A stretch of DNA of 64,000 nt, taken from Phycisphaerae bacterium (GTDB lineage Bacteria > Planctomycetota > Phycisphaerae > UBA1845 > Fen-1342). Below are positions 26,271-63,820 of the stretch, in pieces. The stretch lies in assembly GCA_050115495.1 (NCBI GenBank), contig JASFQK010000003.1, forward strand, positions 128,001-192,000, written 5' to 3'. A program made the position numbers and the translations under genes. The number at the start of each line of letters is the position of its first letter. Positions within the stretch are counted from its first letter, which is position 1. Under the pieces are notes generated by a model, which worked only from the letters and a program-made list of their open reading frames with translations, was not told the origin of the DNA and ran no database searches.

Positions 26271-26816
26271 ATGTCGGGCAACCTGTGTGAACATTGCACG
26301 GGCGTGTGCTGCAAGTACATCGCCCTGCCGATCGATACGCCGGAGACGAAGGCCGATTTCGACGATGTGCGGTGGTATCTGCTGCACGAGAACGTGTCGG
26401 TGTTCGTGGAGGACGGGTCGTGGTACATCAACATGGCGACGCCATGCCGGCATTTGCAGGCGGACAATCGTTGTGGGATTTACGCGACGCGGCCGCGGAT
26501 TTGCCGGAAGTACACGACCGATAACTGCGACTACCATTCGGGTGATTACGGGTGGGAGCAGCATTTCACCTGCCCCGAGCATCTGGATGTCTATGTAACC
26601 GAGAAAGTCTCGAAGTCCGGGAATCGCAAGGTTAGAAATGGATCCTCGAATACACGGGGATCCGAGAAATCCTCGAAGAGCAAGATACACTTGAATAGGA
26701 AGATGCCCGGTCCCGGCAGCGGCGTGATCGGGCGTGATCCAGCGGGGGCGCGGCTGGCCGAGGCGCGGACGGATATCGCCGGCGTGAACCTGCCCGTGCT
26801 GGGAGACGGCGCATGA
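26271..26816 (+). CDS. YkgJ family Cys-cluster protein
   Basis: CEHCTGVCCKY, CRHL...CGIYATRPRICRKY. Confidence 0.85.
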   Translation: MSGNLCEHCTGVCCKYIALPIDTPETKADFDDVRWYLLHENVSVFVEDGSWYINMATPCRHLQADNRCGIYATRPRICRKYTTDNCDYHSGDYGWEQHFTCPEHLDVYVTEKVSKSGNRKVRNGSSNTRGSEKSSKSKIHLNRKMPGPGSGVIGRDPAGARLAEARTDIAGVNLPVLGDGA

Positions 26817-28114
26817 AGATCCAGTCCCCGCCGGGAATGCGTGATTTCTACCCCGACGACATGCGCCGGCAGCGCTGGCTGTTCGACCTGTGGCGCGACG
26901 TGTCACTGGCCTGCGGCTGTGAGGAGTACGAAGGGCCCATCTTCGAATATCTCGACCTGTACACGGTCAAGAGCGGAGAGGGCATCGTCTCGGAGCTGTT
27001 CAATTTCACCGATCGCGGCGAGCGGCGGTTCGCCATCCGGCCGGAGATGACGCCGACGCTGGCTCGCATGGTGGCGGCGCGGGCGAACGCGCTGTCGCGG
27101 CCGATCAAGTGGTTCAGCGTGCCGCGGATGTGCCGGGCGGAGAAGCCGCAGCGGGGTCGGCTGCGCGAGTTCTTCCAGTGGAACGTGGACATCCTGGGTG
27201 TCGACGACGTGCTGGCCGACGCCGAGGTGATTGCGGTCGCCGTCGAGTTTCTGCGGCGGGTCGGGCTCACGCCGGCGGACGTGGTGATGCGGATCAGCAG
27301 CCGGCCGCTGGCGACGGCGGTGCTGGGGGCGCTGGGTGTCGAGCGCGAGCAGGTCGGCAGGGCGTTCGAGCTGATCGACCGGTTCGACAAGCTGGGCGTG
27401 GAGGAGTTTCGGCGGCAGTGGCAGGAGTTCGCGCCGCGCGTTTCGCCGGATGGACTGCTGGAGCAGCTCGAACGGACGGACCTGGCGGGTTGTTTGCGCC
27501 TCCTGGAGAAGGAGGGCGATGCGGGGACGGCGGCGCGGCAGCAGTTCGAGGAGTTATGGGAGCGGCTGCGGGCGCTCGACGTGGTCGAGTATTGCGCGTT
27601 CGACCTGAAGGTCGTGCGCGGCCTCGCGTACTACACCGGGCCCGTCTTCGAGGTCACCGCCCAGCGCGGCGGCCTGCGGGCGCTGCTCGGCGGCGGACGC
27701 TACGACAACCTGACCGAATTGCTCGATGGGCCACGCGTCTCGGGCGTCGGTTTCGGCATGGGCGACGCTCCGGTCCTGGAGTGCTTGCGAGAACTCAGCA
27801 AGTTGCCGGATCTCAGCCAGACGCTCGATCTGTTCGTGATGGACGCGGGCGGCGAGTACTTCGACCGCGTGCTCGAAATCGCCACGCAGCTTCGGCGGGC
27901 GGGGCTGACGGTGGATTTCTCGTACAAGCGGCAGGCGATCGGGAAGCAGTTCAAGCAGGCGTCGGGCCGTGGAGCCCGGTATGCGATCGTCGTCGGCGGC
28001 GAATACGACGAAAAACGACAGTTGACGGTGAAGAACCTATCCACGGGCGAGCAGGAGGCGGTGTCGGCCGAGAAGCTCCTGGCGGACCCGCGTGCGCTGC
28101 TGGCGAGCATTTGA
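26813..28114 (+). CDS. hisS: Histidine--tRNA ligase
   Basis: PGMRDF, RPEMTP, EKPQRGRLREFFQ, RGLAYYTG, GGGRYD. Confidence 0.96.
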   Translation: MKIQSPPGMRDFYPDDMRRQRWLFDLWRDVSLACGCEEYEGPIFEYLDLYTVKSGEGIVSELFNFTDRGERRFAIRPEMTPTLARMVAARANALSRPIKWFSVPRMCRAEKPQRGRLREFFQWNVDILGVDDVLADAEVIAVAVEFLRRVGLTPADVVMRISSRPLATAVLGALGVEREQVGRAFELIDRFDKLGVEEFRRQWQEFAPRVSPDGLLEQLERTDLAGCLRLLEKEGDAGTAARQQFEELWERLRALDVVEYCAFDLKVVRGLAYYTGPVFEVTAQRGGLRALLGGGRYDNLTELLDGPRVSGVGFGMGDAPVLECLRELSKLPDLSQTLDLFVMDAGGEYFDRVLEIATQLRRAGLTVDFSYKRQAIGKQFKQASGRGARYAIVVGGEYDEKRQLTVKNLSTGEQEAVSAEKLLADPRALLASI

Positions 28115-49723: not shown

Positions 49724-49979
49724 TGATGCGTGCGGGAAAAGAACGGTCGAAATGGGGAAGGGCGGTAAGGCTAGTGGGGCAAAGGACTTAGCGGCGGTTG
49801 GCGGTGGAAGGAATGCCGGCGCTTAGGCGCAAATGGCCGGCGGGGGCTGATGTAAGTCCTTTGTGGGGCGTGAGTTAAAAAAGACCGGTCGCGCGGAATC
49901 AAATCTGCCATTCGGCCGGGGGGCGTGACGGCCCTGGCGGGCTGGAAACGCGGTTTCTGTCGGGAAAAGACCGGTCGAA
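49724..49979 (+). repeat. Left end: three spaced putative transposase-binding sites
   Basis: GAAAAGAACGGTCGAA 49736, AAAAGACCGGTCGCGC 49879, GAAAAGACCGGTCGAA 49964. Confidence 0.8.
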
Positions 49980-50499
49980 CGTGACAGCGCCGAAGAGGGG
50001 GCGGATCGTGCGTAAGCACTGCGCCACAACGGCTTTGCAGGCGTTTCGACGGCCGATGTGTCACGGTGCGCTGTCACGGTGGGTAGCGTGACATTTCCGG
50101 CCCGGGAGCGGTTTCGGCGCGGCGCAATCGACGGACCGATAACGTCCTTATTGAGACGGGGTCGCGCGGCGGTGGTGCGGGGCCGCCGGCGGGTCGCGAC
50201 GGGGCGGGACCGCCCGGTGGGGACCGGGTTCGGCGGGCCGCCGAAGGACGGACGGCGCCCGGCCGAAGGGGCGTCGGAGACCGGAGCGGATCGGGGCGGG
50301 CGGTGGGCGGTTGTCGTTTGTGCAACAGCGGGCGACAGACGGTTACGCGGGGCTGCCGGGCGGTGGCGGCGGGCCGGGCATGGCCGGGTTCGATCCAGGT
50401 TCGACGGCTCGCCGGGCTGGCGTCGAACGGTGTTCGACGGGCGGTTGCGGCGGGGCGACCGCCGACGGGGCGAAGCGGGGGCTTCTGCGTCGGGGCGCC

Positions 50500-50910
50500 G
50501 GCGGCGACACGGCGGTAGGCCCATCACTTCACGATAGGCGGGCGTCTCGCTGGCAAGCTGCATCGCGTCGCGAAACGACAACGTCTTCAACGCGACGGTT
50601 GCCACCGGTGATTGAACCATGCTCTTGAAGCAGCCGGCCGTGCCAGGCGTTTGCATCGCGCGGCGGTATCGAATCGGCTGACCGCAAACCACACTATTCA
50701 TATTACTGTCGTTCGGGCGGAAGCCGGGCAGACCGGCGGTGCCGCAACACGTTCGATCATCGGACAGCCGGCGGAGACGGTTCTCCGCACATAGGAACTT
50801 CAGGCCGAGCTCGTGGCAATGCTCCCGGATCAACCGCAGGTCGCGCTCAAGCGCACCGACCGCGTAACACCAGTCCGCGCCGACGTGGACCAGCCCGGGG
50901 GCGGCGCGGT
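50500..50910 (-). pseudogene. 5'-truncated fragment resembling the C-terminus of a phage radical-SAM (SPL-like) protein
   Basis: Frame reads PGLVHVGADWCY...IREHCHELGLKFLCAENRLRRLSDDRTCCG; in-frame TAA just upstream (~50930); no CxxxCxxC. Family resemblance is from recall. Confidence 0.45.
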
Positions 50911-50931
50911 ATCGTACAATCGAGGTGGATT

Positions 50932-51264
50932 ATGCACGCAATAATGATGCTGGCGTTTTCGGGGGCGGTCACGCTGACCGCGGGACAGAGGACGTACTTC
51001 ATCGTGGCCGGGGTCATTGTGGCGGCGCTGGCGTGGGCGGCGGCCGGCGCGGCGGTCGGTAGCTGGATCGGGAAGCAGAACGGGCACAGCACGGCGTCCC
51101 AGCTTCTGGCCATTCTCTTGGGACCGCCGGGCATGATTGCGGCTGTGCTGTTGCCGCGGACACCCCGGGCGGAAGCGCGCTGGCGGATTCAGGTCAAGCG
51201 GGCGATGGAAGACGAGCTGAAGGCGGCGGCGCAGAACCCGCCGCAAGCTGTTCCACGCGACTGA
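50932..51264 (+). CDS. Small membrane protein (element cargo)
   Basis: Hydrophobic helices; LLGPPGMIAAVLLP. Confidence 0.55.
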   Translation: MHAIMMLAFSGAVTLTAGQRTYFIVAGVIVAALAWAAAGAAVGSWIGKQNGHSTASQLLAILLGPPGMIAAVLLPRTPRAEARWRIQVKRAMEDELKAAAQNPPQAVPRD

Positions 51265-51296
51265 ACGCGGCGGCGGCGTGCGGACGTCGCGAGCGG

Positions 51297-52478
51297 CTAC
51301 GGTGAGCATGGAGCGTCGCGGGCCGGGTCGAACCAGTAGCGGAAGGCGGCGTCAAGATCAGCAAGGTGCTTCCGCATTGCTTGCCGTGTGGACTCGTCGG
51401 CGGCGCCGAAGACCTGCTCGGCGAGGGGTGGTAGGGCAAACAGGCGCATGGCGAACTCAGCGTAGCGGACGGCTTCGAGTGCTCCCGGCCAGGGGGGCTC
51501 TTCGCCGGCCGGCGCGCTCAACTCGCGAAAGTAACCGTCGGGGGAAGTCTCGCGGGCCTTCGTGACGTATTCGTTCAGGTACAGATAGTGGGGGAGCAGT
51601 CCGCGGGCCAGGTCCGAATCGTTGCTTATCAGGCGCAAGAGCTGGCTGAGCCGGAAGGCCGTCATGACGTCGTGCAACTGGGCGACGGTTTCGGCGGCGA
51701 TTCCGTGAAAGCCGTACTCGGCTTCGATTGCACTGTCGCGGAAGGTGAGGGATAGACTCGCTTCGCGGCCGGCGAGGCCGGCGGCCACACAGTCCCACTC
51801 GTCAATCATCCTGCCCCAGTGCTGAGCGCTGCGCTCGGAGGCGAAGAGGGTCACACGCCACACATGCGGGAGGCCCGTGATTACGTCATTCATGGCGTCG
51901 CGCGCGATCTCGTCGAGCGGATCGGGACCTTTCGCGAAACTGGCGCTCTCCGCGTCGTGCTTCAGACCGGCCGCGAAACGGGTACTCTCCGCGTCGTGCT
52001 TCAGCTCGGCCGCGGCGCGGCGAAGCAACTCAACTTGTGCATCGGACGGCGGCGACGTGCGCAGGGCCACCCATGCCAGCGTCGAACCGATCGAACGGAC
52101 ACCATGAAACAGGACTTCGTCCGGGACCATGCGGCCCGCAAGACTCACATCCGACAGCCGGTCGTGAAGGATGTGGGGCAGGTGTCGCCAGAGAACGAGG
52201 CCGGGGAGGGCGACGCCGCGCATGGCGTCGGTGACGGCGGGCGGTTTGCTGACCGCGTCGGCGAGGGCAAAGAACTCATCACGGTCACGCTGATCGAGCG
52301 CAAGTGCCGTCGCCAGCCGGGTTACGGTGTCCCATGTCGGACGGGCCTCGCCGCGCTCAATGGTCGCGACGTGGTTCGTGGCTATGCCCGCGGCCCGGGC
52401 CAGCGACGCGGCGGACCGGAAGCCGTGCGCCTTTCGTTTGTCCCGGAGCCAGACGCCGAGTGCCTTGCTCGCCTTCAT
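51297..52478 (-). CDS. XRE/CI-like repressor with large unknown C-terminal region
   Basis: LGVWLRDKRKAHG...LARAAGIATNHVATIERGEARPTWDTVTRLATAL. Confidence 0.8.
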   Translation of the reverse strand: MKASKALGVWLRDKRKAHGFRSAASLARAAGIATNHVATIERGEARPTWDTVTRLATALALDQRDRDEFFALADAVSKPPAVTDAMRGVALPGLVLWRHLPHILHDRLSDVSLAGRMVPDEVLFHGVRSIGSTLAWVALRTSPPSDAQVELLRRAAAELKHDAESTRFAAGLKHDAESASFAKGPDPLDEIARDAMNDVITGLPHVWRVTLFASERSAQHWGRMIDEWDCVAAGLAGREASLSLTFRDSAIEAEYGFHGIAAETVAQLHDVMTAFRLSQLLRLISNDSDLARGLLPHYLYLNEYVTKARETSPDGYFRELSAPAGEEPPWPGALEAVRYAEFAMRLFALPPLAEQVFGAADESTRQAMRKHLADLDAAFRYWFDPARDAPCSP

Positions 52479-52510
52479 CACCAGCAAGCATAGCGAACGG
52501 CCGCAACAAT

Positions 52511-52583
52511 TGCACCGATAACGACTTCCGAAAATTGTCTGAATCACCGTTGACAGCGGTGCAAATGAACGTTAGAAACGGTG
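52511..52583 (+). promoter_or_regulatory. Rightward sigma70-type promoter overlapped by a 17-bp operator-like palindrome
   Basis: TTGACA 52550-52555, 17-bp spacer, TAGAAA 52573-52578; CACCG-N7-CGGTG at 52545-52561; extra half-sites at 52513 and 52579. Confidence 0.7.
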
Positions 52584-52598
52584 AACATGAAGGGAAAC

Positions 52599-52856
52599 AT
52601 GGTAAAACTTGACGCCGGAAGGCTGAACCGGGCTCGGTTACGCCGCGGGTGGACGTGGGCAGACGTGGCCGCCGCAACGGGGCTAGCGAGTCGGACAAGG
52701 ACAAAGCTGGCGAATGGTGAGCCCGTGACGATCACGGTGGCGCGGCGGGCGTGTGCGGCGTTGCGCATATCGCTTGCGGCAGCGCTGATTCTTGATGACC
52801 CCGTGTCAGTGGAGGCGCCGGCCGAGCTGCCAGTTGGACAGAGCGCGGTGGCATAG
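52599..52856 (+). CDS. Cro/Ner-like small HTH protein
   Basis: RLNRARLRRGWTWADVAAATGLASRTRTKLANGEPVTITVARRACAAL; divergent from the repressor. Confidence 0.8.
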   Translation: MVKLDAGRLNRARLRRGWTWADVAAATGLASRTRTKLANGEPVTITVARRACAALRISLAAALILDDPVSVEAPAELPVGQSAVA

Positions 52857-52985
52857 CCCGCTTATGGCGTGACGAGATGACGCACAACCTCAGACATAAC
52901 GAACGGCTCTCGTCACGCGGCCGGCCGGCCGGCGCTACGGCGCCGCCGGCCGTGCCCTTTGTGTGTTGTGATTGTGGGTGAGCAG

Positions 52986-53426
52986 ATGACGGAGTCCGTC
53001 TCAAAACTCGGTGGCGGCGGGCTGTCGGCGGAGGCGACCCAGGCCTTAATCGAGGAGGGTATAGCAGCCGCCGCCGAATGCATGGCGGGGCTCGTCGCCG
53101 GGCCGCGGTGGTTCGTTGGGCTTCTGGGCGCGGCAGCACGCTTCGCCGCCGTGACGCCGCTCGGCGAGATTCTGTCCACAGACCTTGACCGGGTGTGTGA
53201 GGAAGCCCCCGACGCCTGGAACGTCGTGGGTGAGTTGCGCGCGCTCAGAGCGCGGCTCGACAGCCTACTCGGGCTCCTGCCGGCCTTCGGCGAGATGGCG
53301 TTGCGCGTGGGTGGTTTGGGCGGGGTGCCAGACAAGGCGGCGCTCGATCTCTGCTCGGCCTTCGCCCATATGGCACAAGGCGTTCTCCGGCGGTGGCTGG
53401 CGGAGCTGGAGGCGGCCGAGCAATGA
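52986..53426 (+). CDS. Hypothetical helical protein
   Basis: Stop overlaps the transposase ATG (ATGA). Confidence 0.55.
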   Translation: MTESVSKLGGGGLSAEATQALIEEGIAAAAECMAGLVAGPRWFVGLLGAAARFAAVTPLGEILSTDLDRVCEEAPDAWNVVGELRALRARLDSLLGLLPAFGEMALRVGGLGGVPDKAALDLCSAFAHMAQGVLRRWLAELEAAEQ

Positions 53427-55969
53427 GCGCGGGCCTGCGACTGGCGCCGGGCGAGTACGTCACCGAAGACGGTGAGGTTATTCAGCGCCAGCCGCGCGCG
53501 GGGTTGGGGGCGGGGCGGGTGCCGTTCGAGCTGTGCCGCGGGGCGTGGCCGTGCACCGATGTGGGCCGGCAGCAGCGGCGGCGCTTCTGGATGGGCTTGT
53601 CCGAAACGCTGCGGGAAGAGGGGCCCGACGGCGAGAAGTACATCGACGCCAGCGTTACGCTGCCCGGCGGTGACAAGGCGGGGAAGTTCGTCCAATTGGA
53701 GTGGGGCTACAAGCCGCCGGCAGGGTGGCGGACCTGGACGGCGCAGCAACGGCGCGACTGGGAACGGAAGGTCGCGGTGTTGGTGCGTGTGGAGCAATTC
53801 TTCCTCGCTCGCCCGCACCTGCTGCGGTCCAAACCGTCCAGCTACCGGGAGTTCAATCGTGCCAATGTCGAATGGCTGGCCGAGATGGGACGGGAGTATC
53901 AGCCGTGCGGCCGGCCGCTGCGCGTCAGCAAGACGACGTTGAACGCGTATGCACGAACAATCAACGATCCGGATAAGGCCGCACCCAAGCGCGGCCGGCC
54001 GAAGGGGAGCGGCGCGAAGGAATGGCACCCGCGGGCGCTTGAGCTGTTCGACACGCTCTACCGCGGGCACCGCGACGCGAGCGACGTACTGCGGAAGATC
54101 CAGGCCTACGCATGGAAAGAGGGCTTCGAGGCGCCGACGCCGGCTATGGTCTACAAGCGCATTCGGGAGATGACGCAGGCGGAGCGGGTCTTTCGACGGT
54201 CCGGGATGCGCGGCGTGAAAGAGCAGTGCGTTCCGAAGATGCGACGGACGCGAGCGGAACTGAAGGGATGGTCGTTCGGTGATGGACATACGATAGCCGG
54301 GTTCATCAGGGTGCCTGACGGACACGGCGGTTTGAAGGCAGTGCGTCCGACGGTTGCCGGCGTCTATGTGGCATTTGCCCAGAAGTTCTCGGAGGCGCGC
54401 GCTGGGTTGTCCGAGAGCGCGGAACTGATGGCGGCGGCGTGGCGAGGGGCGGTCCTCGAAGATGGGCCGCCGGCGGTCGCGCAGTTTGACAACACACACG
54501 CCATGGACGGGCTTACGGGCTCGCCGTATCGCAAGCAGCCGGGGCGGCGGGCCAAGTACGCCAGCGGGGGCCTGGGCGGTTTCTTCTCACTCTTCGGTAC
54601 GCAGGTGCACAAGAGCAAGCCCGGAGAGAAGCACACGAACGCAGTTGAGAGCGGCTGGCGGTATTTGATCCGCGCGGTTGAGAAGTGGATGAACTCATAC
54701 TGCGGGTCGCATCCGAAGGACAAGCCGGAAGGGCTGGACCGCTGGCTACGAGACAACATCGACAAGCTCCCGACGCTGGAAGACCTGAACGTGTTCTTGC
54801 GAGAATTCAAGGCTGCGCACAACGCAACGCCGCGGCGGGCGCTGGGGGGCTTGACACCCAACCTGTTCATGGAGCGGTACGGTCCTACGCGGCGGATCAT
54901 CGACCCCGACACGATCGACATTTACCTGTGCCCGATTGTGGCGGAACGGACGCTGGGGCGGGACGGCGTTTCGCTCAACGACATCCTGTACACGCCGGGG
55001 CCCAGCGTACTGCTGCGGTGGCAGGGCAAGCGTGTCGGTGTGCGACGAGACCCGGACCGGCTGGACCGTGTCACGCTCTGCGACGCAGACGGCGTCGCGA
55101 TCGGGCGAGCGTACAACGACAAGCTGCGCGGGGCGCGTGCCCAGTCTATGAAGGTGGCAGAGCGTCGGGCACGACAGTACAAGGCCGCGCTGCGCACGAT
55201 GATCGACACGCGGGATACGCGCTTCATGCCGAAGACCTTCGAGATTCTGCGCGTTGAGCGAGAGTACCGCGAGGCCGAAGAGGGGCGGCTGCGGAAGCAA
55301 CTCGCCGACGATCCCAAGCGGGAGACGACGATCATCCGGCCGGACCTGGCCGCGTCCGCGGCTGAATGCAAGGAAGCGGACGCGCGGAGAGATGCGCAGC
55401 ACGAACGACAGAAGGCGCGCAAGGCCGTCGGCGATGCTGCGGAAAGGGCGGGGTACTCGCAGGACGAACTCCTGTCGGGACTGGGCAGGTCGGCGATGCT
55501 GACGGGCGGCATGTCCGACGAGCTGCGAGCGAGGATTCGTCGCAGCATCAACATGATGGATGACTGCGACAACGAGTGTGAGGCCCGGGCGGAAGCTCAG
55601 GAGCCGGGGGACCGGCGCCGCATGGTGATGGAGCAGCTCGCGGCACGGGCTCGATACGATGAAGAGGCCGAACGCAACACGCCGCGCCGGGAGAGCATCG
55701 GAGAGCGGTTCGCGAAGATGTACAGGGAAGCAGAGGGCGGAGGGCAGGGGGGACCAGGTGGGGACATGAGCGGCTTCGACATGCTGGCCCGCGGGCCGGC
55801 GGCGGACGCGGACGACGACGACGAGCTGGACCCCGTCGCGTTGCGCATGGAGTACTTCGGGAGTGAGATCCCGCGGCCGCCATCGGAAGAGCCCAACCCG
55901 TGGGACGAGTTTGTAGTGGGCGAAGACGAAGACGGCGACGCTGAGCAGGGGGACGACGATGCGGCGTAG
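53423..55969 (+). CDS. MuA-like DDE transposase (848 aa)
   Basis: GDGH, FDNT and AVES match the MuA catalytic D-D-E contexts (GDG, DNT, VER); YCGSHPKDKP; VRRDPDRLDRV C-terminal barrel. Confidence 0.9.
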   Translation: MSAGLRLAPGEYVTEDGEVIQRQPRAGLGAGRVPFELCRGAWPCTDVGRQQRRRFWMGLSETLREEGPDGEKYIDASVTLPGGDKAGKFVQLEWGYKPPAGWRTWTAQQRRDWERKVAVLVRVEQFFLARPHLLRSKPSSYREFNRANVEWLAEMGREYQPCGRPLRVSKTTLNAYARTINDPDKAAPKRGRPKGSGAKEWHPRALELFDTLYRGHRDASDVLRKIQAYAWKEGFEAPTPAMVYKRIREMTQAERVFRRSGMRGVKEQCVPKMRRTRAELKGWSFGDGHTIAGFIRVPDGHGGLKAVRPTVAGVYVAFAQKFSEARAGLSESAELMAAAWRGAVLEDGPPAVAQFDNTHAMDGLTGSPYRKQPGRRAKYASGGLGGFFSLFGTQVHKSKPGEKHTNAVESGWRYLIRAVEKWMNSYCGSHPKDKPEGLDRWLRDNIDKLPTLEDLNVFLREFKAAHNATPRRALGGLTPNLFMERYGPTRRIIDPDTIDIYLCPIVAERTLGRDGVSLNDILYTPGPSVLLRWQGKRVGVRRDPDRLDRVTLCDADGVAIGRAYNDKLRGARAQSMKVAERRARQYKAALRTMIDTRDTRFMPKTFEILRVEREYREAEEGRLRKQLADDPKRETTIIRPDLAASAAECKEADARRDAQHERQKARKAVGDAAERAGYSQDELLSGLGRSAMLTGGMSDELRARIRRSINMMDDCDNECEARAEAQEPGDRRRMVMEQLAARARYDEEAERNTPRRESIGERFAKMYREAEGGGQGGPGGDMSGFDMLARGPAADADDDDELDPVALRMEYFGSEIPRPPSEEPNPWDEFVVGEDEDGDAEQGDDDAA

Positions 55970-56174
55970 CGTGGTCCTGGAACGTCTAGCGGCGGCGCGG
56001 GGGAGCGCTCGCGGGGTTGTCGCTCCGCTTCGAGCGAGCCGCGCCGCCGCTGTAATTCTTGTGTGTGTCGGGCTGTCGGCAGGGACGTCGGCGGCAGTGG
56101 CGTATCGCGGGCTGGCCGACAGGGACGTCGGCGGCTCGCTTCCCCCGATGTGCGATGCGCAGGGGACGCCAGCA

Positions 56175-57188
56175 ATGACGGTAGCAGCGAACACGTTTTC
56201 AGCAGCCTTCGAGGAAGCCGCGCGGCGAAACGAAACACGGCAGGCGGTGCGGCTGGTCCGCGACGGCGAGCCGCTCGCGGACGAGGCGGCGGCGATTGCC
56301 GCGGTTCGCAAGCACCTGGACGAGAACGGGGTCGAACCGAAGCGGCTGGCGAAGGCGCTCGACGTGGCGCCGAGCCTCATTCGGGGGCTGTTCGCAACGC
56401 CCGCGACGATTCCCGACGGCCCGCGCCACACGCTGATTCGGGACGCGAGCCGCTGGTGCCGCGCGGACGCCGAAGAGCGCCGCGTGCGCAAGGCGGCGTT
56501 CGTGCCGACGGCGTGCACGCGGCTGGTCGTGGGGCTGGCCCGCGTGGTCCGCGAGACGCGCACGATCGGGTTGGTGGTGGGCGGGCCGGGGCTCGGCAAG
56601 AGCCACGCGCTCGCAGTCGCCGCGGCGGAGTTGCCGGGCGAGACGGTGCTGGTCCGGTGTGACACGGACAGCCGCTCAGCCAAGGGCATACTCCGGGCCG
56701 TCGGCTTCGCCGGGGCGGCGGCGCTGTCGAGCGTGGCCCGGCCTTCGGTCAAGGCCGGCGTCGAGGCGGTGCGGGCCGGCAACGGACTGGTCGCCGTGGA
56801 CGAGGCGCAACTTCTCGGCGTGAACGGCCTTGAGGCGCTGCGGGCCGTGTTCGATCAGGCCGGAGTCGGGCTGCTGCTGGTCGGGACCACGTCGCTGGCG
56901 CGGTCGCTGAACGGCGGGGCTGATCCGCTGTGCGGGCCGCTGGTGTCGCGGATCGCTTTGCGTGTGGACCTGGACGACGAGCTGTTGGGCGGCGGGCGGA
57001 ACTGGATCGACGCGGCGGCGCTGCTGTTGACGCTGGCGAACGGGGACCCGGCGCACCTGCGGTGCGCGGTGGACACGGCGAAGGTCGCCCGCGTGCTAGC
57101 GCGGAACCGGGACGGACACGACGGCGGCGGGGCGGTTTCGCTGGCGGACGTGCAGGCGGCGCTACGCATGAGACGGAAGGACGGATGA
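56175..57188 (+). CDS. MuB/TnsC-like AAA+ transposition ATPase with N-terminal HTH
   Basis: KRLAKALDVAPSLI, GGPGLGKS, VAVDEAQLL, LLLVGT, LVSRI. The ORF can extend to 55959. Confidence 0.85.
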   Translation: MTVAANTFSAAFEEAARRNETRQAVRLVRDGEPLADEAAAIAAVRKHLDENGVEPKRLAKALDVAPSLIRGLFATPATIPDGPRHTLIRDASRWCRADAEERRVRKAAFVPTACTRLVVGLARVVRETRTIGLVVGGPGLGKSHALAVAAAELPGETVLVRCDTDSRSAKGILRAVGFAGAAALSSVARPSVKAGVEAVRAGNGLVAVDEAQLLGVNGLEALRAVFDQAGVGLLLVGTTSLARSLNGGADPLCGPLVSRIALRVDLDDELLGGGRNWIDAAALLLTLANGDPAHLRCAVDTAKVARVLARNRDGHDGGGAVSLADVQAALRMRRKDG

Positions 57189-57796
57189 CGAACGACGAGC
57201 TTAACGCGGCTCTTGCGGTGGCTCCCGGCCGGACGGTGTCGTGGGCGGCGGCGGCGCGGCTGGTGGATGCCCTCGCCCCCGGGCTGACGGCGCTGCGGCG
57301 GGACGGCACGACGCGGGCGCTGCGCACGGTGCTGTGTTACTGCGCCGCGGTGGCAGCGGACCGCCGGCGGCTGGAACAATGGCGAGCGCGGCCGCGTGCG
57401 ACACGAGGCCGGCGCCCGGGGCGACTGACGATCCCGGCTTTTTTGTACAAGTGGCACCGCCAGCAGGGCGACCGCGTCTCACGCCGCACGTTCGCGCGAT
57501 GGATACGCCGCTACCGGCAGACGGGGGCGGCCGGCCTGATTGACGGCCGCGGAGCGTGGAAGCGGGCGAGCACGCGCGCGGACGTGCAGCTCTTCGCCGA
57601 GTTGCTGCGGCGCGTGGCGGCTGGTGCGCCGGTCGCGGTTGCCTGGCGCGAGTTGGCGCCGGCGGCGAGAGAACAGGGAATCGCCTGGCCGGCGCTGCGC
57701 TCGATGCAGGAACGCGTGGCGGCGGTGCGGCCGTTCATCCAGGCGAACGCAGAGCTTCTGGGCGCGCCGCGGCGGCGACGAGGGGGGCGCAAATGA
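57185..57796 (+). CDS. Stand-alone MuA I-beta/I-gamma-like double-HTH DNA-binding protein
   Basis: VSRRTFARWIRRYRQTGAAGLIDGRG and AWRELAPAAREQGIAWPALRSMQERV; no DDE core. Confidence 0.7.
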   Translation: MTNDELNAALAVAPGRTVSWAAAARLVDALAPGLTALRRDGTTRALRTVLCYCAAVAADRRRLEQWRARPRATRGRRPGRLTIPAFLYKWHRQQGDRVSRRTFARWIRRYRQTGAAGLIDGRGAWKRASTRADVQLFAELLRRVAAGAPVAVAWRELAPAAREQGIAWPALRSMQERVAAVRPFIQANAELLGAPRRRRGGRK

Positions 57797-58193
57797 GCTG
57801 GCGCTGTGCCACGAGAACGGGCCGCAGACGTGCAGGACTCGGCTCTGCTCGGCGATCGGTCGCTTGTCAGGGGGGTAAGGCGGGGCGATGCAGCCGCGGG
57901 GCTCCTGCGGGCTTGCATCACAAACTGCGAACCGCCCGGACGGTCCGGGTGGCCGCGGTCGACGGAAATCGACCTTGTCGTTGCCGATCGGATCAGCTCG
58001 CCGTTGCGCCGGCGGTGGGACTCGTCCCCCCGCCGGCGGTTTGTCGCGGCCGGCGCCGGCAGCGGCTCTGCCGACTTGGGATCCATCCGCGGGCGGGCCG
58101 CGGGCGTGGCACGTGCACGCCCGCGGTGCCGACCGTCCGCGGCACGGGCGTGGTGGCGCATTGAGTCGTCGTTAGCGACAGGAGGTCGCACGC

Positions 58194-59513
58194 GTGGCTG
58201 AGGAAAAAGAACTGCTCAAGGTTGAGCTGGACGTCGCCGAGGCGCTGGCCCGGGCCGAGAAGCTCAAGCAGACGCTGGAAGAGCTGGACAAGGTGCGGGC
58301 CGCGGGGGGCGATACCACCGGACTGGAGGCGAGACTCAACCAGGAAGTCAACGCATTGGGGGCGGTGGTCGTACAGCAGAAACAGAACGCAGGTACGACC
58401 GAAGAGGTCATTCGCCAGAAAGAGAAGCTCGCGTCGGTGGTCACCATGCTCGGCGGCCGGTTTGGGGGCTTGGTAGGGCAACTGGCGAGCGTGGGCGAGC
58501 TGTTGCTACAGATGGGACCGGCCGTTGGAGTCGTCGCCGGGACCTTGGCAGGGACCACGGCAATCGTCGCGGGCTGGCAGGCCGTGAACCGCGAACTCAA
58601 GGAAGCCGCCGAGCGTCTGGAGCACTTCCGCAGGGCGAAGGAAGAGGTGGTCAAGGGCGAGATGTCGCCGTTGAGACAGATCGAAGGCGACCTGCTGAAG
58701 ATGGGGCTCCTGGAACAGGGCCGCGCCGAGAAAGTGTACGACTACGCGCTGGCCATGATGAGCCAGGGTGTGCCGAAGGACCTGGCGCTGTCGATTGCTC
58801 CCGAAGCGCACGCGGCGGGATTGCCGTCACAGTCGGCTTCGATACTGGCGATGGCGAAGGCGGCGGGGGTGGAGATTGCCGATACGCCGCGGGCGATGAA
58901 GACGGCGGACGAGCGGATGTCGGCCGAGTCGCGGCTTCTGTTCTCTCAGCAGCTCGTCGCGATGCGCACCACGCTTACCGGAAGAGACGCAATCGGCGAA
59001 GCGGCGAACATGCGGCGGATGAAGGAAGACGACCCCGGGAACTGGCTCGCGTACATGGGCGGCACTACGGACGTGAGGACGCTTGAATTCGCGAAGCGGA
59101 TGGGGTTGCTTGATCCGGAAGCGGGACGGCAGGACGTTAGCAAGAAGATGGGCGAACTCGCGCGTGCGCGCGGGGGGCGAAGGCGGCTACGCAATTACCT
59201 GGCCGGCCGGTCGCCAGACGAAGACGGCCCGGCGGACGAGGTGCCTAAGCCGACGCCGCAATTCGATCGGCAGATCGAAGAGTTGGAAAGAATCGAGAAC
59301 ATCTACAAGGAGATTGGCGCAAACCGGGCCGCAGAGGACGCGTCGGGTCCGGCGCCGGGATACACGCCGCGGAATGGGACGGTCAACGTGTACAACCTCT
59401 ACAACACGACGAACCAGGGCGTAGTGCTGAACGCGCCGGACCCGCGGATGCGCACGCCGGGGGTGTCGTCGCTCAACCCGGGACTGGCCGACGCATTCAG
59501 GAACCGGGATTAG
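58194..59513 (+). CDS. Short tape-measure-like coiled-coil protein
   Basis: GGAGG SD + GTG; LKVELDVAEAL N-terminus, Gly/Ala hydrophobic segment, helical body, NVYNLYNTTN near the C-terminus. Confidence 0.5.
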   Translation: MAEEKELLKVELDVAEALARAEKLKQTLEELDKVRAAGGDTTGLEARLNQEVNALGAVVVQQKQNAGTTEEVIRQKEKLASVVTMLGGRFGGLVGQLASVGELLLQMGPAVGVVAGTLAGTTAIVAGWQAVNRELKEAAERLEHFRRAKEEVVKGEMSPLRQIEGDLLKMGLLEQGRAEKVYDYALAMMSQGVPKDLALSIAPEAHAAGLPSQSASILAMAKAAGVEIADTPRAMKTADERMSAESRLLFSQQLVAMRTTLTGRDAIGEAANMRRMKEDDPGNWLAYMGGTTDVRTLEFAKRMGLLDPEAGRQDVSKKMGELARARGGRRRLRNYLAGRSPDEDGPADEVPKPTPQFDRQIEELERIENIYKEIGANRAAEDASGPAPGYTPRNGTVNVYNLYNTTNQGVVLNAPDPRMRTPGVSSLNPGLADAFRNRD

Positions 59514-59525
59514 ACGGGAGACCCC

Positions 59526-59966
59526 ATGTCTTTTGAGCTGGTCGAATCTGGCGACTTCGGCGGCGGCGGTGAGGCCCTGGCCGAGGGGGAATGCAGCCTG
59601 AGGAAGGGCGGGAAGCTGGTCGCACACGCCGCGGACCTGGCGCTCGTGAACATCGGCAACTATGCCATGGTCATGGCCGATGCCGGGACCCTGCGCATCG
59701 CGCTTCGGGCGGTGCGCGATGGCGAGGAAGCGAAGAGTTACGCGTGTTCGGTGGTCCGAAGAGCCAACAAGACCGATAGCGGCCGGCGCGAAATCAACGT
59801 GTTGCGAGCTTTGCACCGGCTGAACCTTACGCCGGAAGCGGTGGTCGGTCGGTACCCGCTGACCGTGAAGGGCGAGGGCGCCGGCGGGATGCTCATTGTG
59901 AATCTGGTCGGCGACGGGGCGAAGGACCCGGAGGGGGAGAAAGACAAGGGGGCGGCGAAGGCGTGA
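59526..59966 (+). CDS. Hypothetical protein
   Basis: GGGAG SD; co-oriented within the operon. Confidence 0.65.
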   Translation: MSFELVESGDFGGGGEALAEGECSLRKGGKLVAHAADLALVNIGNYAMVMADAGTLRIALRAVRDGEEAKSYACSVVRRANKTDSGRREINVLRALHRLNLTPEAVVGRYPLTVKGEGAGGMLIVNLVGDGAKDPEGEKDKGAAKA

Positions 59967-60097
59967 TGTTCGGAAGGGGTGCACATGTCGGATTCGGGCG
60001 GGTCGGTGGCGACGGCGCCGCCGCCGGCGGGCCTATGCGGACGAGTGGGTCGCACGGGCCACCGCTTCGCGCCGCGGGACAGATGGAGGATACGAGC

Positions 60098-60418
60098 ATG
60101 TCAGACCACACCCAACAGAGTGCGGGGGAACCGACGAGCTGGCCGCCGCTGGATTCGCGGGTGGAACTCAGAGTGCGGGGGATGGAACGGGGCGCACGTG
60201 CGCACGGCCGGCTGTTGGCGGCGTGCGAGCTGACGTCCGACGATCAGCAGCGGCTACATGCCTGGCTATCCGGGCGCGGCGGCCCGGCACAGTTCGGCGC
60301 CCTGGTCCGGTTGTTGGGCAGGCTGGACTTCGATGAACGCCGGGACTTGATCGACGGGCTGCACGAGATCATCGAGGTACCGGCACCGCAGTCGTCGGAC
60401 GCGAAAGGCGGTGCGTGA
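60098..60418 (+). CDS. Hypothetical protein
   Basis: GGAGG SD before MSDHTQQ; stop overlaps the next start. Confidence 0.6.
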   Translation: MSDHTQQSAGEPTSWPPLDSRVELRVRGMERGARAHGRLLAACELTSDDQQRLHAWLSGRGGPAQFGALVRLLGRLDFDERRDLIDGLHEIIEVPAPQSSDAKGGA

Positions 60419-61113
60419 TGTGTGGACACGCAACAACGGTACGGCAGGACATGCCGACGTGGTCGGCGCTGAAGGATTTGGTCGCCGGGTTGGGGGAGCG
60501 GGACATCAACCGCCCGCTCGGTCGGGCCAGCGGTGACGAGCCGCTGTTGCCGGCGCCGGAGGTCGTGGCTGAGGCCGTCGCCCGGGAGTTGCTTTGCATC
60601 AGGCAGCGAATGGCGGCGGCGCTGGGGTGGCTTGAGCAAGGGATCATCGCCGATTTCGAGTTCGCGGCCGACGATTGCGAGGCGGGCCGGCGGCTGGCGG
60701 TGGACGAGCTGCACGATGCGCAGACCCGGCTCCATGAATGCGGCGGAGCGCTGCTGACCTGGCTGCGCCTGGTCGGGCACAGCTCGATTGTGCCGTTGGA
60801 TGCGGAATCATGGGCGGCGCTCTGCGCTTTGGCGGAAGACACGCTGCCGCACCCGCACGCGGGCTACGTCAGCGAGCTCGTCAAGGCGGCCGTCGTGAAC
60901 CTGTCAGAGCGACAGGACGCCCCGGCGGTAGTCGCGCGCGGCGAGTGTGAGCGGCTCCGGGCGTGCGGGTTCAAGCTGAAACCGGACCGGTGGCCGTCTG
61001 TCCAGGTCGGCGGCGGGAAGCCCTGGCCGGCGACGGAAGCGAAGAATGGCAAGAGCGGCAAGGCGTCGCGGGCGAAGGCGTCCGCGGGCAAGGCCGCGGT
61101 GGCGGTTGCTTGA
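60415..61113 (+). CDS. Hypothetical protein
   Basis: GTGA overlap; helical body, K/A-rich tail. Confidence 0.6.
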   Translation: MMCGHATTVRQDMPTWSALKDLVAGLGERDINRPLGRASGDEPLLPAPEVVAEAVARELLCIRQRMAAALGWLEQGIIADFEFAADDCEAGRRLAVDELHDAQTRLHECGGALLTWLRLVGHSSIVPLDAESWAALCALAEDTLPHPHAGYVSELVKAAVVNLSERQDAPAVVARGECERLRACGFKLKPDRWPSVQVGGGKPWPATEAKNGKSGKASRAKASAGKAAVAVA

Positions 61114-61123
61114 GGATCTGAGC

Positions 61124-62206
61124 ATGTACGGGTGTCTGGTTGCGAAGGTGGGCGGCGTGCCCAAGCGTGAGTTTCGCATCGTCCCATACGGCGCGGTCGA
61201 TGCGGTCAACGCCGCGAAGGGCGGGCCGTTCACCTTCACACGCGAACACGCCCGACAGGCGGTCTCGTGGTTCCAGCGGGTGGGCCGAAAGCTGATGATC
61301 GACTACGAGCATCAAAGCGTGCAGAGTTTGAACACCCGGCCGGACGGGCTGTCGCCCGCGGCCGGGTGGATCGGGCGTATCGAAGCCCGTCCGGATGGAC
61401 TCTGGGCGGCGGATGTCGAGTGGACGGCCGCCGCTGCGGAAGCCCTTCGGCGCGGGGAGTACGCCTACTTCTCGCCGGTCATTTACTGGGGCGACCGGAA
61501 CCATGGCACACTCGACAGCTTGGGGCCGATCGCGCTCACCAACGATCCGAGTATGACCAACGTCGAGCCGCTCGTCGCGACGCGGCTACACGTGGATGTG
61601 TTCGCCGGCGACGGCGCCGGCGGAAGTGAGACCAGCCCGGGCAGGACGCCGCGGGGCGCAACACAAGGAGACGGTATGAGCCCGATGGATCGGGTGGCGG
61701 AGGCCCTTGGGCTTGCGCCCGGGGCGAGTCTGGAAGAGATCCTCGCCGAGATCAAGCGGCGGGGTGGCGCACAGACGACGGCGGCGATTCGCGCGCGACT
61801 GGGACAGCTCGAAGCGGGAGTCACGGCACTGACGGGCTGTCCGGCGCGCGGGGCGAACGACGAAGCCGGCTGGGCGGCGGAGTACGACGCAAACCTCCCC
61901 GACGCGGAAACGGGACGTCCTCTTCAGGACTGCTTCATGAGCAGAGACAACTACGTCCACTACATGAAGGCGGTACAGGATGGGCTTGTTACCACGCGCC
62001 CCAGCCGACAGCAGCGGGCGGCGACGGTTGCCAAGCGCAGAGCGGAAGAGGGGATGTCGGACGCGACCTTCGAGGCCGTTCTGAGGAGGGAGTGGAACGG
62101 CAACGTGGTCGACGAGACCGGCCGTCGCGTGCGCGAGTGTTTCTTCAGCTTCGAGAACTTCGCCGCGTACCGGCGGGGCGTGAGATCGGAACGCATCACA
62201 GCGTAG
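61124..62206 (+). CDS. Mu gpI-like prohead protease fused to scaffold-like C-terminus
   Basis: IDYEHQ, PAAGWI, GLWAADVEWT, EYAYFSPV, ALTNDP; then ALGLAPGASLEEILAEI and a duplicated C-terminal motif. Confidence 0.85.
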   Translation: MYGCLVAKVGGVPKREFRIVPYGAVDAVNAAKGGPFTFTREHARQAVSWFQRVGRKLMIDYEHQSVQSLNTRPDGLSPAAGWIGRIEARPDGLWAADVEWTAAAAEALRRGEYAYFSPVIYWGDRNHGTLDSLGPIALTNDPSMTNVEPLVATRLHVDVFAGDGAGGSETSPGRTPRGATQGDGMSPMDRVAEALGLAPGASLEEILAEIKRRGGAQTTAAIRARLGQLEAGVTALTGCPARGANDEAGWAAEYDANLPDAETGRPLQDCFMSRDNYVHYMKAVQDGLVTTRPSRQQRAATVAKRRAEEGMSDATFEAVLRREWNGNVVDETGRRVRECFFSFENFAAYRRGVRSERITA

Positions 62207-62278
62207 GCCGCTGCGGGCATCGGACGAGAAGACACCAGCAGCCACGAACGGCTGCGTAGCTTGAGAAAGGATTCGGGA

Positions 62279-63121
62279 ATGACCGATGTGGGACTGACTG
62301 AGAAGCCGATTACCAGCAAGCTGTCCGAGCAGGCGGCGGCGCTGTTGGCGGATCGGCGTGCCAAGGCGGGGCAGGCGTACTCGGAGATGCTTCGCCGCAA
62401 CGATTCGCCGCAGGCAGGCGACGCTGAGCGACTGGCGGACGTGATGCACACGCTGGGGCGGGACGGCAATGACCTCGAAGACGACACGCTCCTGGTGCAG
62501 AAGATCATGGAGGCGGAACAAGCCGCCGGTGACCTGGAGGCCTTCGAGGCGACCGAGGCGCCGCCCATCGCGCAGAAGTACCGCGATGGAATGGCCCGGT
62601 TCAAGGCCGAGCGGGAGGCGTTCGAGAAGCGGTGGCATGAGGAAATCGAGGCGCTGGAACGCGAGTGGAGCCTCTGCAAGCACAAGCGTGTGAACCTGAA
62701 CACCGTCGCCAGACAGCTCGACTTCCTGCGGCGGAAGTGGGCGGAGCGGATCGGTCAGCCCTTGCCGCCGGTGAAGCGGGAGACCATTCCGGCTCCGAAG
62801 CCGTCGCGTGAGGAAGTGATTGCCCGCATGAAGCGGGAGTGCGAGCGATTCACGTTCAGCGTGGCGGTAAGTCAACGGACCCGGTGGACAGTAGCCGACG
62901 GCGTAGGCCGTGGCTGGAGGATACGAACATGGGACAACCGATTCACGCAGAGCAGCAGAAGCAGCAGTTGTTGCTCGCCTGGCTCGCGGTTGAGCCGGGC
63001 CTGCAAAACCTGGACACGCTCCCGCCGCAGGTCCTCGACCTGGAAGAGTGCTTTCACACGGTGCCGCAGTCCATCGCGCACCTGGTTCGGCCGGGGGGCA
63101 GCGCTACGTATCGCGAGCTGA
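62279..63121 (+). CDS. Hypothetical coiled-coil protein (3' end uncertain; overlaps next gene by ~190 nt)
   Basis: Charged helical sequence up to ~62860; downstream tail looks non-native. Confidence 0.5.
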   Translation: MTDVGLTEKPITSKLSEQAAALLADRRAKAGQAYSEMLRRNDSPQAGDAERLADVMHTLGRDGNDLEDDTLLVQKIMEAEQAAGDLEAFEATEAPPIAQKYRDGMARFKAEREAFEKRWHEEIEALEREWSLCKHKRVNLNTVARQLDFLRRKWAERIGQPLPPVKRETIPAPKPSREEVIARMKRECERFTFSVAVSQRTRWTVADGVGRGWRIRTWDNRFTQSSRSSSCCSPGSRLSRACKTWTRSRRRSSTWKSAFTRCRSPSRTWFGRGAALRIAS

Positions 63122-63549
63122 TTCAGCGGCTGAAGCGCATGCGGCGTCTGGCGACCTGGATCGAAGACGAAGACGGCCTGGACACGCTGCCCGGCATGCC
63201 GGAAGGCGTCCAGTTGCTGAGCGACTGCGGGCACGCTGTGCCGGAGTCGGTGTCGGCGAAGGTCGGCTTCAACGGCCCGACCGGTTACGGGGCGGTGGTG
63301 GAGCGTCTGGGGCACATGGGGGCGCTGCTACGCTTCCTGGACGGGCATCCCGACGGCTTGCGGCCCGGCGACGAGATTCCGGCGGACGTGCTGAAGCTGA
63401 AGGACTGTTCGGTTCCCATCCCGTCGGCGAGCGAATCGACCGCGTCGGCGGCGGTGGGTCTGTCCGGACGCGTGTCCTACGGGTTGATCGTCGGGCGGCT
63501 GCTTGAGCTGAAGGCCGCGCCCGCGACCGACCAGCCCGCAGCGGAATAG
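62929..63549 (+). CDS. Hypothetical protein built of three ~59-aa repeats
   Basis: GGAGG SD; repeats of GL-x4-[LMI]P-x2-V-x2-L-x2-C-x3-[VI]P...G-x3-Y-x5-RL. Confidence 0.7.
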   Translation: MGQPIHAEQQKQQLLLAWLAVEPGLQNLDTLPPQVLDLEECFHTVPQSIAHLVRPGGSATYRELIQRLKRMRRLATWIEDEDGLDTLPGMPEGVQLLSDCGHAVPESVSAKVGFNGPTGYGAVVERLGHMGALLRFLDGHPDGLRPGDEIPADVLKLKDCSVPIPSASESTASAAVGLSGRVSYGLIVGRLLELKAAPATDQPAAE

Positions 63550-63681
63550 ACGACCGCCCGGCGGCGGTTCTGCGGGCCTTCGATGAGCGATTGATTAGCC
63601 GTCGAAGGACGACATAGAGGCCGAACCGACGGCCTTATTGAGACGCCCGGTGGGGGGCCGGGCTTGGAGTTTGCGCCCGTT

Positions 63682-63731
63682 TTCGACCGGTCTTTTCGTG
63701 CAGCGCGACCGGTCTTTTCGCGCGCCGATCA
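63682..63731 (-). repeat. Right end: two adjacent putative transposase-binding sites (22-bp period) and terminal CA
   Basis: 63682-63697 is the exact reverse complement of 49964-49979; 63703-63718 is the exact reverse complement of 49879-49894. Confidence 0.85.
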
Positions 63732-63792
63732 TGAAGGGCCCGCGAGGTGGCCGGAGGGGGTTTTGAGCCGCCCGGTCGCTGTGTGACTCATA

Positions 63793-63820
63793 ACGTCCTA
63801 TAATATATATTATGTTGCGT
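63793..63820 (+). other. dif: dif site (XerC/XerD chromosome dimer resolution site)
   Basis: ACGTCCTATAA-TATATA-TTATGTTGCGT has the 11-6-11 layout, close to B. subtilis ACTTCCTAGAA-TATATA-TTATGTAAACT and E. coli GGTGCGCATAA-TGTATA-TTATGTTAAAT; AT island in GC-rich DNA. Confidence 0.85.

Follow-up and report, generated by a model that had tools for sequence, protein, structure and literature searches.

The window, that is, the whole 64-kb stretch of DNA analysed here, belongs to a genome designated G000 (relatives are numbered in the same manner, contigs carry the prefix C and fetched loci the prefix L). It contains a Mu-type element which spans positions 49724-63731 (14,008 bp) and is present in G000 in one copy. 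The element has Mu-type TG...CA ends, with TG at 49724 and CA at 63730-63731. Its left end (49724-49977, + strand) holds the terminal TG and three 14-bp putative transposase sites (at 49736, 49878 and 49964), which are inverted relative to the two 14-bp sites (63684-63697 and 63706-63719) that form the right end together with the terminal CA (63684-63731, - strand). The outermost bases of both termini agree at 21 of 26 positions, and the left end is of the same type as in the element of a relative, G032. The automatic end finder was noisy, with output usable for G000, G032 and G013 only. No 5-bp target duplication was found at the flanks of the G000 element.

The transposition genes follow the MuA/MuB-type layout. 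A MuA-like DDE transposase (53423-55969, +; Mu-transpos_C 3e-8, phrog_310 1e-45), whose candidate triad D287, D356 and E409 was picked by eye from the sequence, precedes a MuB-like AAA+ ATPase (56175-57188, +; AAA_22, phrog_296 2e-27). An XRE-type repressor (51297-52547, -; Pfam HTH_31 2e-10, phrog_3949) is divergent from these genes, and between them lie a Cro-like HTH protein (52581-52856, +; Pfam HTH_26 1e-4) and an ORF of unassigned function (52959-53426, +) with no Pfam or PHROG match. The stretch next to the left end encodes only the C-terminal part of a truncated cargo protein (50501-50833, -), with homologues in the elements of G049 (57%) and G013 (45%), and a small hydrophobic protein (50932-51264, +) with a homologue in the G054 element. 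By our own reading of a CxxxCxxC motif, and with no family match, the G049 form of the cargo protein appears to be radical-SAM-like. Downstream of the ATPase we found an HTH protein resembling a transposase N-terminal domain (57188-57796, +), which is present in elements away from dif too, four ORFs of unassigned function (58194-61113, +), the first two of which recur in related elements both at dif and elsewhere, a Mu-like prophage I protein (head maturation protease/scaffold; 61124-62206, +; PF10123 1e-33, phrog_328 9e-34) and two overlapping ORFs (62261-63121 and 62929-63549, both +) to which the ORF list and the Pfam and PHROG scans assigned no function.

Within these 14 kb the I protease was the only member of a complete-phage gene set (head, packaging, tail, lysis) recognised by Pfam and PHROG, and terminase, portal and tail families gave no match among the scanned ORFs. 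TniQ/TnsD likewise had no Pfam or PHROG match there, in agreement with an earlier reading made from the sequence alone; several of the ORFs are family-less, and a very remote adaptor is conceivable. In the G021 element (L060, 7155-9952) an HK97-type major capsid gene and a ClpP-type protease were seen, again with no terminase, portal or tail match among scanned ORFs. The 13-14 kb elements may be transposable phage satellites or remnants.

Identity of the 28-mer beside the right end

The sequence-only reading had placed a dif-like 28-mer 61 bp from the terminal CA, and this geometry was reproduced: a host spacer of exactly 61 bp (63732-63792, strand not applicable) separates the CA from the 28-mer at 63793-63820 (+ strand). 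The 28-mer has the 11-6-11 layout of dif, with a XerC arm (63793-63803), a spacer (63804-63809) and a XerD arm (63810-63820), the arms being assigned by likeness to the C-spacer-D sites of PMC10132070. No second copy was found in G000 within 7 mismatches. A 17-base core, with up to 2 mismatches allowed, was matched in 58 of the 72 family genomes, G000 among them; 57 have a single match and G030 has two, and reversed-pattern controls were nearly empty. The 45 distinct sites yield an 11-6-11 consensus whose right arm resembles XerD arms printed in the same paper. Since the G000 assembly is fragmented, the distance from dif to dnaN was read in relatives; in three near-complete ones it amounts to 49.7% (G015), 48.2% (G023) and 51.9% (G024) of the main contig, which is close to the opposite side, while in G458 (another family, 67% complete) the best dif match lies about 65% from dnaN. 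G000 encodes XerC (above the TIGR02224 cut-off) and a second recombinase which scores best with XerD, under that cut-off (307 vs 330), and is a probable XerD. We thus conclude that the 28-mer is very likely the chromosomal dif, and that it stands single and whole beside the element, undisrupted as the earlier reading had proposed. Another dif-like candidate, C1:138488, was rejected, as it differs from the conserved motif and lies near dnaA-dnaN.

The confirmation by a cumulative GC-skew switch that had been suggested along with this identification was not obtained. G000 has no such switch at the 28-mer, and skewed octamers placed no terminus there; in this respect G000 is not peculiar, since 24 of 36 scored dif loci show no skew sign change over 4.5-kb flanks. 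Origin-type skew minima of G000 occur on C3 at about 127 kb and on C1 at about 142 kb, the latter beside dnaA-dnaN-gyrB, and a second dnaA lies on C3 at 92 kb. PMC3025954 reports unsuccessful attempts to predict dif in Planctomycetes; as a by-product, the present work supplies a consensus of the site for one Planctomycetota family.

The gene block adjoining dif in G028 is colinear on the same G000 contig as dif, but here the element and a further 21.6 kb lie between it and dif. The direct neighbour of dif in G028 corresponds to a host gene at 26813-28114 (+) in the window, hisS by our reading of the sequence. Between this ancestral neighbour and the element, positions 28115-49723 hold 21.6 kb of genes which are not beside dif in G028, namely a repeat protein, an ABC transporter, a chemoreceptor, a histidine kinase and an AAA ATPase (the AAA ATPase by Pfam match, the others by reading). 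The orientation of dif relative to the gene cluster differs between G000 and G028, which belong to the same genus, and dif is inverted relative to the conserved neighbour cluster in G006, G028, G030, G046, G061 and G063.

The G000 element contains a 13-bp direct repeat, one copy of which (50146-50158) is about 420 bp in from the left end and the other (63633-63645) 90 bp in from the right end; the 10 bases preceding its left copy are identical to 63790-63799, at the start of dif, and the repeat scores as neither Xer arm. No internal Xer arm was found in this element. The G021 element has a perfect isolated XerC arm over the repressor stop codon, 381 bp inside its left end (L060, near 17440), a feature not seen in the other elements. 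G013 has a second dif-like site (G013:C9:41509, L363), with no element gene in the fetched stretch. Finally, 94 viral contigs (L208-L301), many of them low in GC (~30%) and with conserved flanks, contain a dif-like site of this consensus; possibly, these are phages which use host XerCD for dimer resolution or integration. No element genes were matched in these 94 loci.

Placement of related elements relative to dif

It had been proposed, from the sequence alone, to ask whether homologues of the transposase are biased towards dif. Transposase homologues occur in 24 of the 72 family genomes, G000 included, and only three of the 23 others have an element end at dif; those three have a similar offset and the same orientation. 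We examined 59 dif loci from 58 genomes (at least 100 bp on the XerC side in 58 loci, at least 9 kb in 40), and element genes adjoin dif in G000, G021 and G048. The G049 element was flagged first by its ATPase; its left end (C103) and right end (C81) were then found to share a 5-bp duplication. Seven further genomes added no element match.

The distance from the right end to dif is 61 bp in G000, 57/49 bp in G021, 58/48 bp in G048 and 53 bp in G049, a spread of 13 bp in which the double values reflect tandem 8-10 bp terminus copies. All four placed clade elements, from three genera of one family, have their right end turned towards dif and lie on its XerC side, and the DNA between element end and dif is unrelated among hosts. 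A 5-bp target duplication was seen in G049, G032 and G013; G021 has no matching one, and the left end of G048 is not in the assembly. Empty dif sites are present in the sister genomes G022, G025-G028 and G030. A scan with end motifs drawn from the known ends gave a single new match, an orphan right-end-like motif in G061 at 54/46/38 bp from the XerC arm; conserved host genes occupy that side there, thus the insertion site follows the polarity of dif and not the neighbouring genes. The one match on the XerD side was in G044, at 86 bp. A tandem right-terminus copy was also observed in a related element which is not at dif and has no ATPase match (L353, G011:C22).

With one element copy in a fragmented assembly, chance insertion or an assembly artefact might be suspected, and the sequence-only reading had left chance open because it had a single example. 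Three relatives with the same geometry (G021, G048 and G049) strongly contradict this, which makes it hardly credible. G048 and G049 belong to the same genus and have a similar right end, so that they possibly represent one event and the total is perhaps three independent events; even so, that two more elements would independently land within 100 bp of dif has a chance of about 2e-9 genome-wide and 4e-6 within a 100-kb zone. Moreover, one contig of run X1 spans element and dif at even depth, although X1 may be the source sample. One contig of run X2, from another study, is without 8 letters at 63732, which would shorten the gap to 53 bp, but its depth is 3.6 and this may be an error. We hold it highly probable that targeting to dif is real.

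The side of dif on which the elements lie bears on the nature of the landmark. FtsK works via XerD and can reach the site from either arm. Every one of the five ends that could be placed is on the XerC side, whatever the orientation of dif relative to the host neighbours. A landmark formed by FtsK, or by another terminus or division factor stalling at XerCD-dif, instead of by XerC, is for this reason quite improbable, even though the run of FtsK ends at dif (PMC11014353) and one non-clade element is found in the terminus region of G066. Because this element lies about 17 kb from dif, on the XerD side, the terminus region may attract these elements loosely as well.

The ATPase clade and the transposase lineages

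An ATPase profile built from G000, G021, G048 and G049 was searched against 279 genomes of the order. It gave five strong matches, these four and G029 from outside that set; the lowest of them scores 294 bits and the next match 176 bits. Within the clade the ATPases share 41-57% identity, against at most about 33% with those of other loci. In a 73-row quick tree the five ATPases and 13 metagenomic proteins, known without DNA context, form one clade (stem 1.23, SH-aLRT 100). The contig of the fifth genomic member, G029, is 3 kb long, and no convincing dif was found on it. Further members were sought more widely: a profile-alignment scan of genome contigs returned only three known relatives and a single-protein scan nothing, a metagenome scan (9 of 64 parts) gave six distant loci, none with a convincing dif, and no clade member was found among viral contigs, no match in a phage collection and no added member in a class-level sample of 401 genomes.

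The transposases of the four dif elements, by contrast, fall in three lineages, and a single clade for them was rejected (p-AU 2.5e-7, with 27 of 56 rows kept). Among the genes that all four elements share, the ATPase shows the highest identity. For the transposase, the repressor and two cargo genes of G000, the best matches were found in elements which are not at dif. The element of G032 has a right end nearly the same as that of G000, a non-clade ATPase and an unrelated insertion site with a clean 5-bp duplication. No dif motif was found in 58 fetched loci (57 non-clade loci and G029), and dif lay downstream of a non-clade ATPase in none of the 25 loci with at least 9 kb downstream, out of 55 ATPase loci in total, these controls being judged on fetched flanks. 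The contrast between clade and controls (Fisher p 4e-5) is overstated, as kin are not independent. As the dif geometry tracks the ATPase clade across three transposase lineages, we consider it likely that the ATPase decides targeting. The earlier proposal that the MuA/MuB pair targets dif is therefore upheld in part: relatives show a similar offset and the same orientation, but the bias follows the MuB clade and not the pair or its transposase.

Such mosaic elements could also arise if one old insertion at the side of dif had persisted and incoming elements had swapped modules by recombination, in which case the ATPase would mark the lineage of the locus and not active targeting. The elements are indeed strongly mosaic, the near-identical right ends of G048 and G049 go with transposases of different lineages, and the absent target duplications of G000 and G021 point to rearrangement. 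However, the ends of G000 differ in type from those of G021, G048 and G049 and match those of G032, whose transposase belongs to the same larger group, so the G000 junction needs an insertion of its own. In addition, the site is empty in most genomes of the family and in close sisters, which would take many clean losses, and the lack of relationship among the end-to-dif sequences also speaks against a single inherited insertion. We judge this course of events improbable, and targeting steered by the ATPase remains our preferred reading.

The predicted structure of the ATPase (pLDDT 82.6) matches MuB best (8xvb in the PDB), followed by TnsC. The G000 protein is without 19 alignment columns near the C-terminus which its relatives fill, and because of this deletion this copy may be inactive; the G000 element, which has no target duplication, may be decayed. 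Members of the clade share a conserved N-terminal domain, which is predicted to be helical and HTH-like (Atlas scores under 0.9, thus a lead only). Through this domain, or by a preference for A/T tracts, the same clade might read the dif DNA itself with no contact to XerC, and in A/T content the dif core ranks with the highest spots, nine G000 loci reaching 16/17 A/T. On the other hand, A/T richness alone leaves 9-207 comparable loci, depending on window size, and would give neither side nor orientation, and among relatives it is the XerC arm that varies more. Moreover, dif in vivo should be largely occupied by XerCD. Direct reading of DNA by the ATPase is therefore rather unlikely. A predicted complex of G000 XerC with G000 MuB scored 0.00, which speaks neither for nor against a contact with XerC.

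Proposed targeting and its relation to known systems

The explanation we prefer, with a probability of roughly 60%, is that the MuB-type ATPase selects the spot by loading beside XerC bound at dif and recruits the transposase. A specialised MuB would load on the DNA next to XerC-bound dif, the loaded ATPase would bring in the transposase, and a short ATPase oligomer might act as a ruler that sets the side and the 48-61 bp offset, by analogy with TnsC in Tn7. The host complex would then stand in for the absent TniQ/TnsD. Insertion at dif could provide the benefit of a safe harbour. The tandem terminus copies may have formed when later copies inserted 8-10 bp inward of a right end already present, and replicative transposition followed by rearrangement may account for the absent target duplications. 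More tentatively, and with somewhat less than an even chance, this MuB lineage would be a stand-alone site-specific selector which docks on XerC at dif without TniQ and has been swapped as a module among unrelated Mu-type transposases and small phage-remnant or satellite elements, homing each of them to the terminus. The main limit is the small sample, since only four elements could be placed, all from one family, and they perhaps go back to three independent events.

In textbooks MuB is the example of non-specific target capture, and where an AAA+ ATPase guides homing to a specific site, this has been tied to TniQ-bearing Tn7 relatives. If the proposal is true, transposons would have a second way, independent of the first, to exploit the XerC side of dif. 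Clade and non-clade ATPases on similar ends would offer a natural comparison for how an ATPase filament becomes target-specific, and the two genes might serve as a tool for insertion at a single neutral locus.

Homing next to dif is in itself known. Elements of the IS1202 family insert 5-6 bp from the XerC arm of dif/pdif in one orientation, and a contact between transposase and XerC has been proposed, though it is unproven (PMC10132070; bioRxiv 10.1101/2022.12.17.520857). The present elements resemble the ISAba32/ISAjo2 subgroup in the DDE transposase, TG...CA ends, XerC side, fixed orientation and intact dif; the 5-bp duplications of that subgroup have a counterpart here in G049, G032 and G013, but not in G000 and G021. 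Members of that subgroup, however, are 1.5-kb, single-gene elements with a transposase only, lying 5-6 bp away with the left end toward the XerC arm, whereas those described here are 13-14 kb long, carry a MuB ATPase and phage head genes, and lie 48-61 bp away with the right end toward dif. Their multi-gene content and their distance place them outside the subgroup, and here the dif trait follows the ATPase. This association with a MuB clade is the new aspect; we found no Mu-type element reported to target dif in the literature searched, which covered few subscription papers.

MuB has been described as a non-specific DNA binder, with Mu sampling the whole genome (PMC7350765), and phage Ab30 has hotspots beside BIME repeats that account for 5% of sites (PMC5977238). 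With Mu and other transposable phages the elements share the MuA-like transposase, the MuB-like ATPase, the repressor/Cro pair, the Mu I protease, repeated end sites and a 5-bp duplication, the last seen in relatives of the G000 element. Unlike those phages, the G000 element is not a complete phage.

CRISPR-associated transposons insert at offsets of about 49 bp and 60-66 bp. In Tn7 the TnsC ring sets the side and the distance of insertion (PMC11406308), and Tn7 and its CRISPR-associated relatives thus resemble our case in that an AAA+ oligomer sets side and distance from a protein-marked site and that selector modules are swapped (PMC10293859, PMC11406308), the ruler role being what we infer here. 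They use TniQ/TnsD, TnsE, TnsF or Cas effectors (same sources), none of which was detected among the element ORFs scanned here. The words 'dif' and 'XerC' do not appear as whole words in the main text of the survey of Tn7 selectors (PMC10293859). To judge from its predicted fold, the present ATPase is closer to MuB than to TnsC.

IMEXs such as CTX and TLC recombine into dif through a dif-like site of their own. The present elements are likewise mobile DNA parked at dif. TLC is mentioned in PMC11014353; the XerC-like cargo of Tn6022 treated in that paper is a separate matter. In contrast to an IMEX, the G000 element has no internal Xer arm, no dif-like attP and no duplication of dif at its borders; one dif stands beside it, single and whole, and the junction is the end of a transposon.
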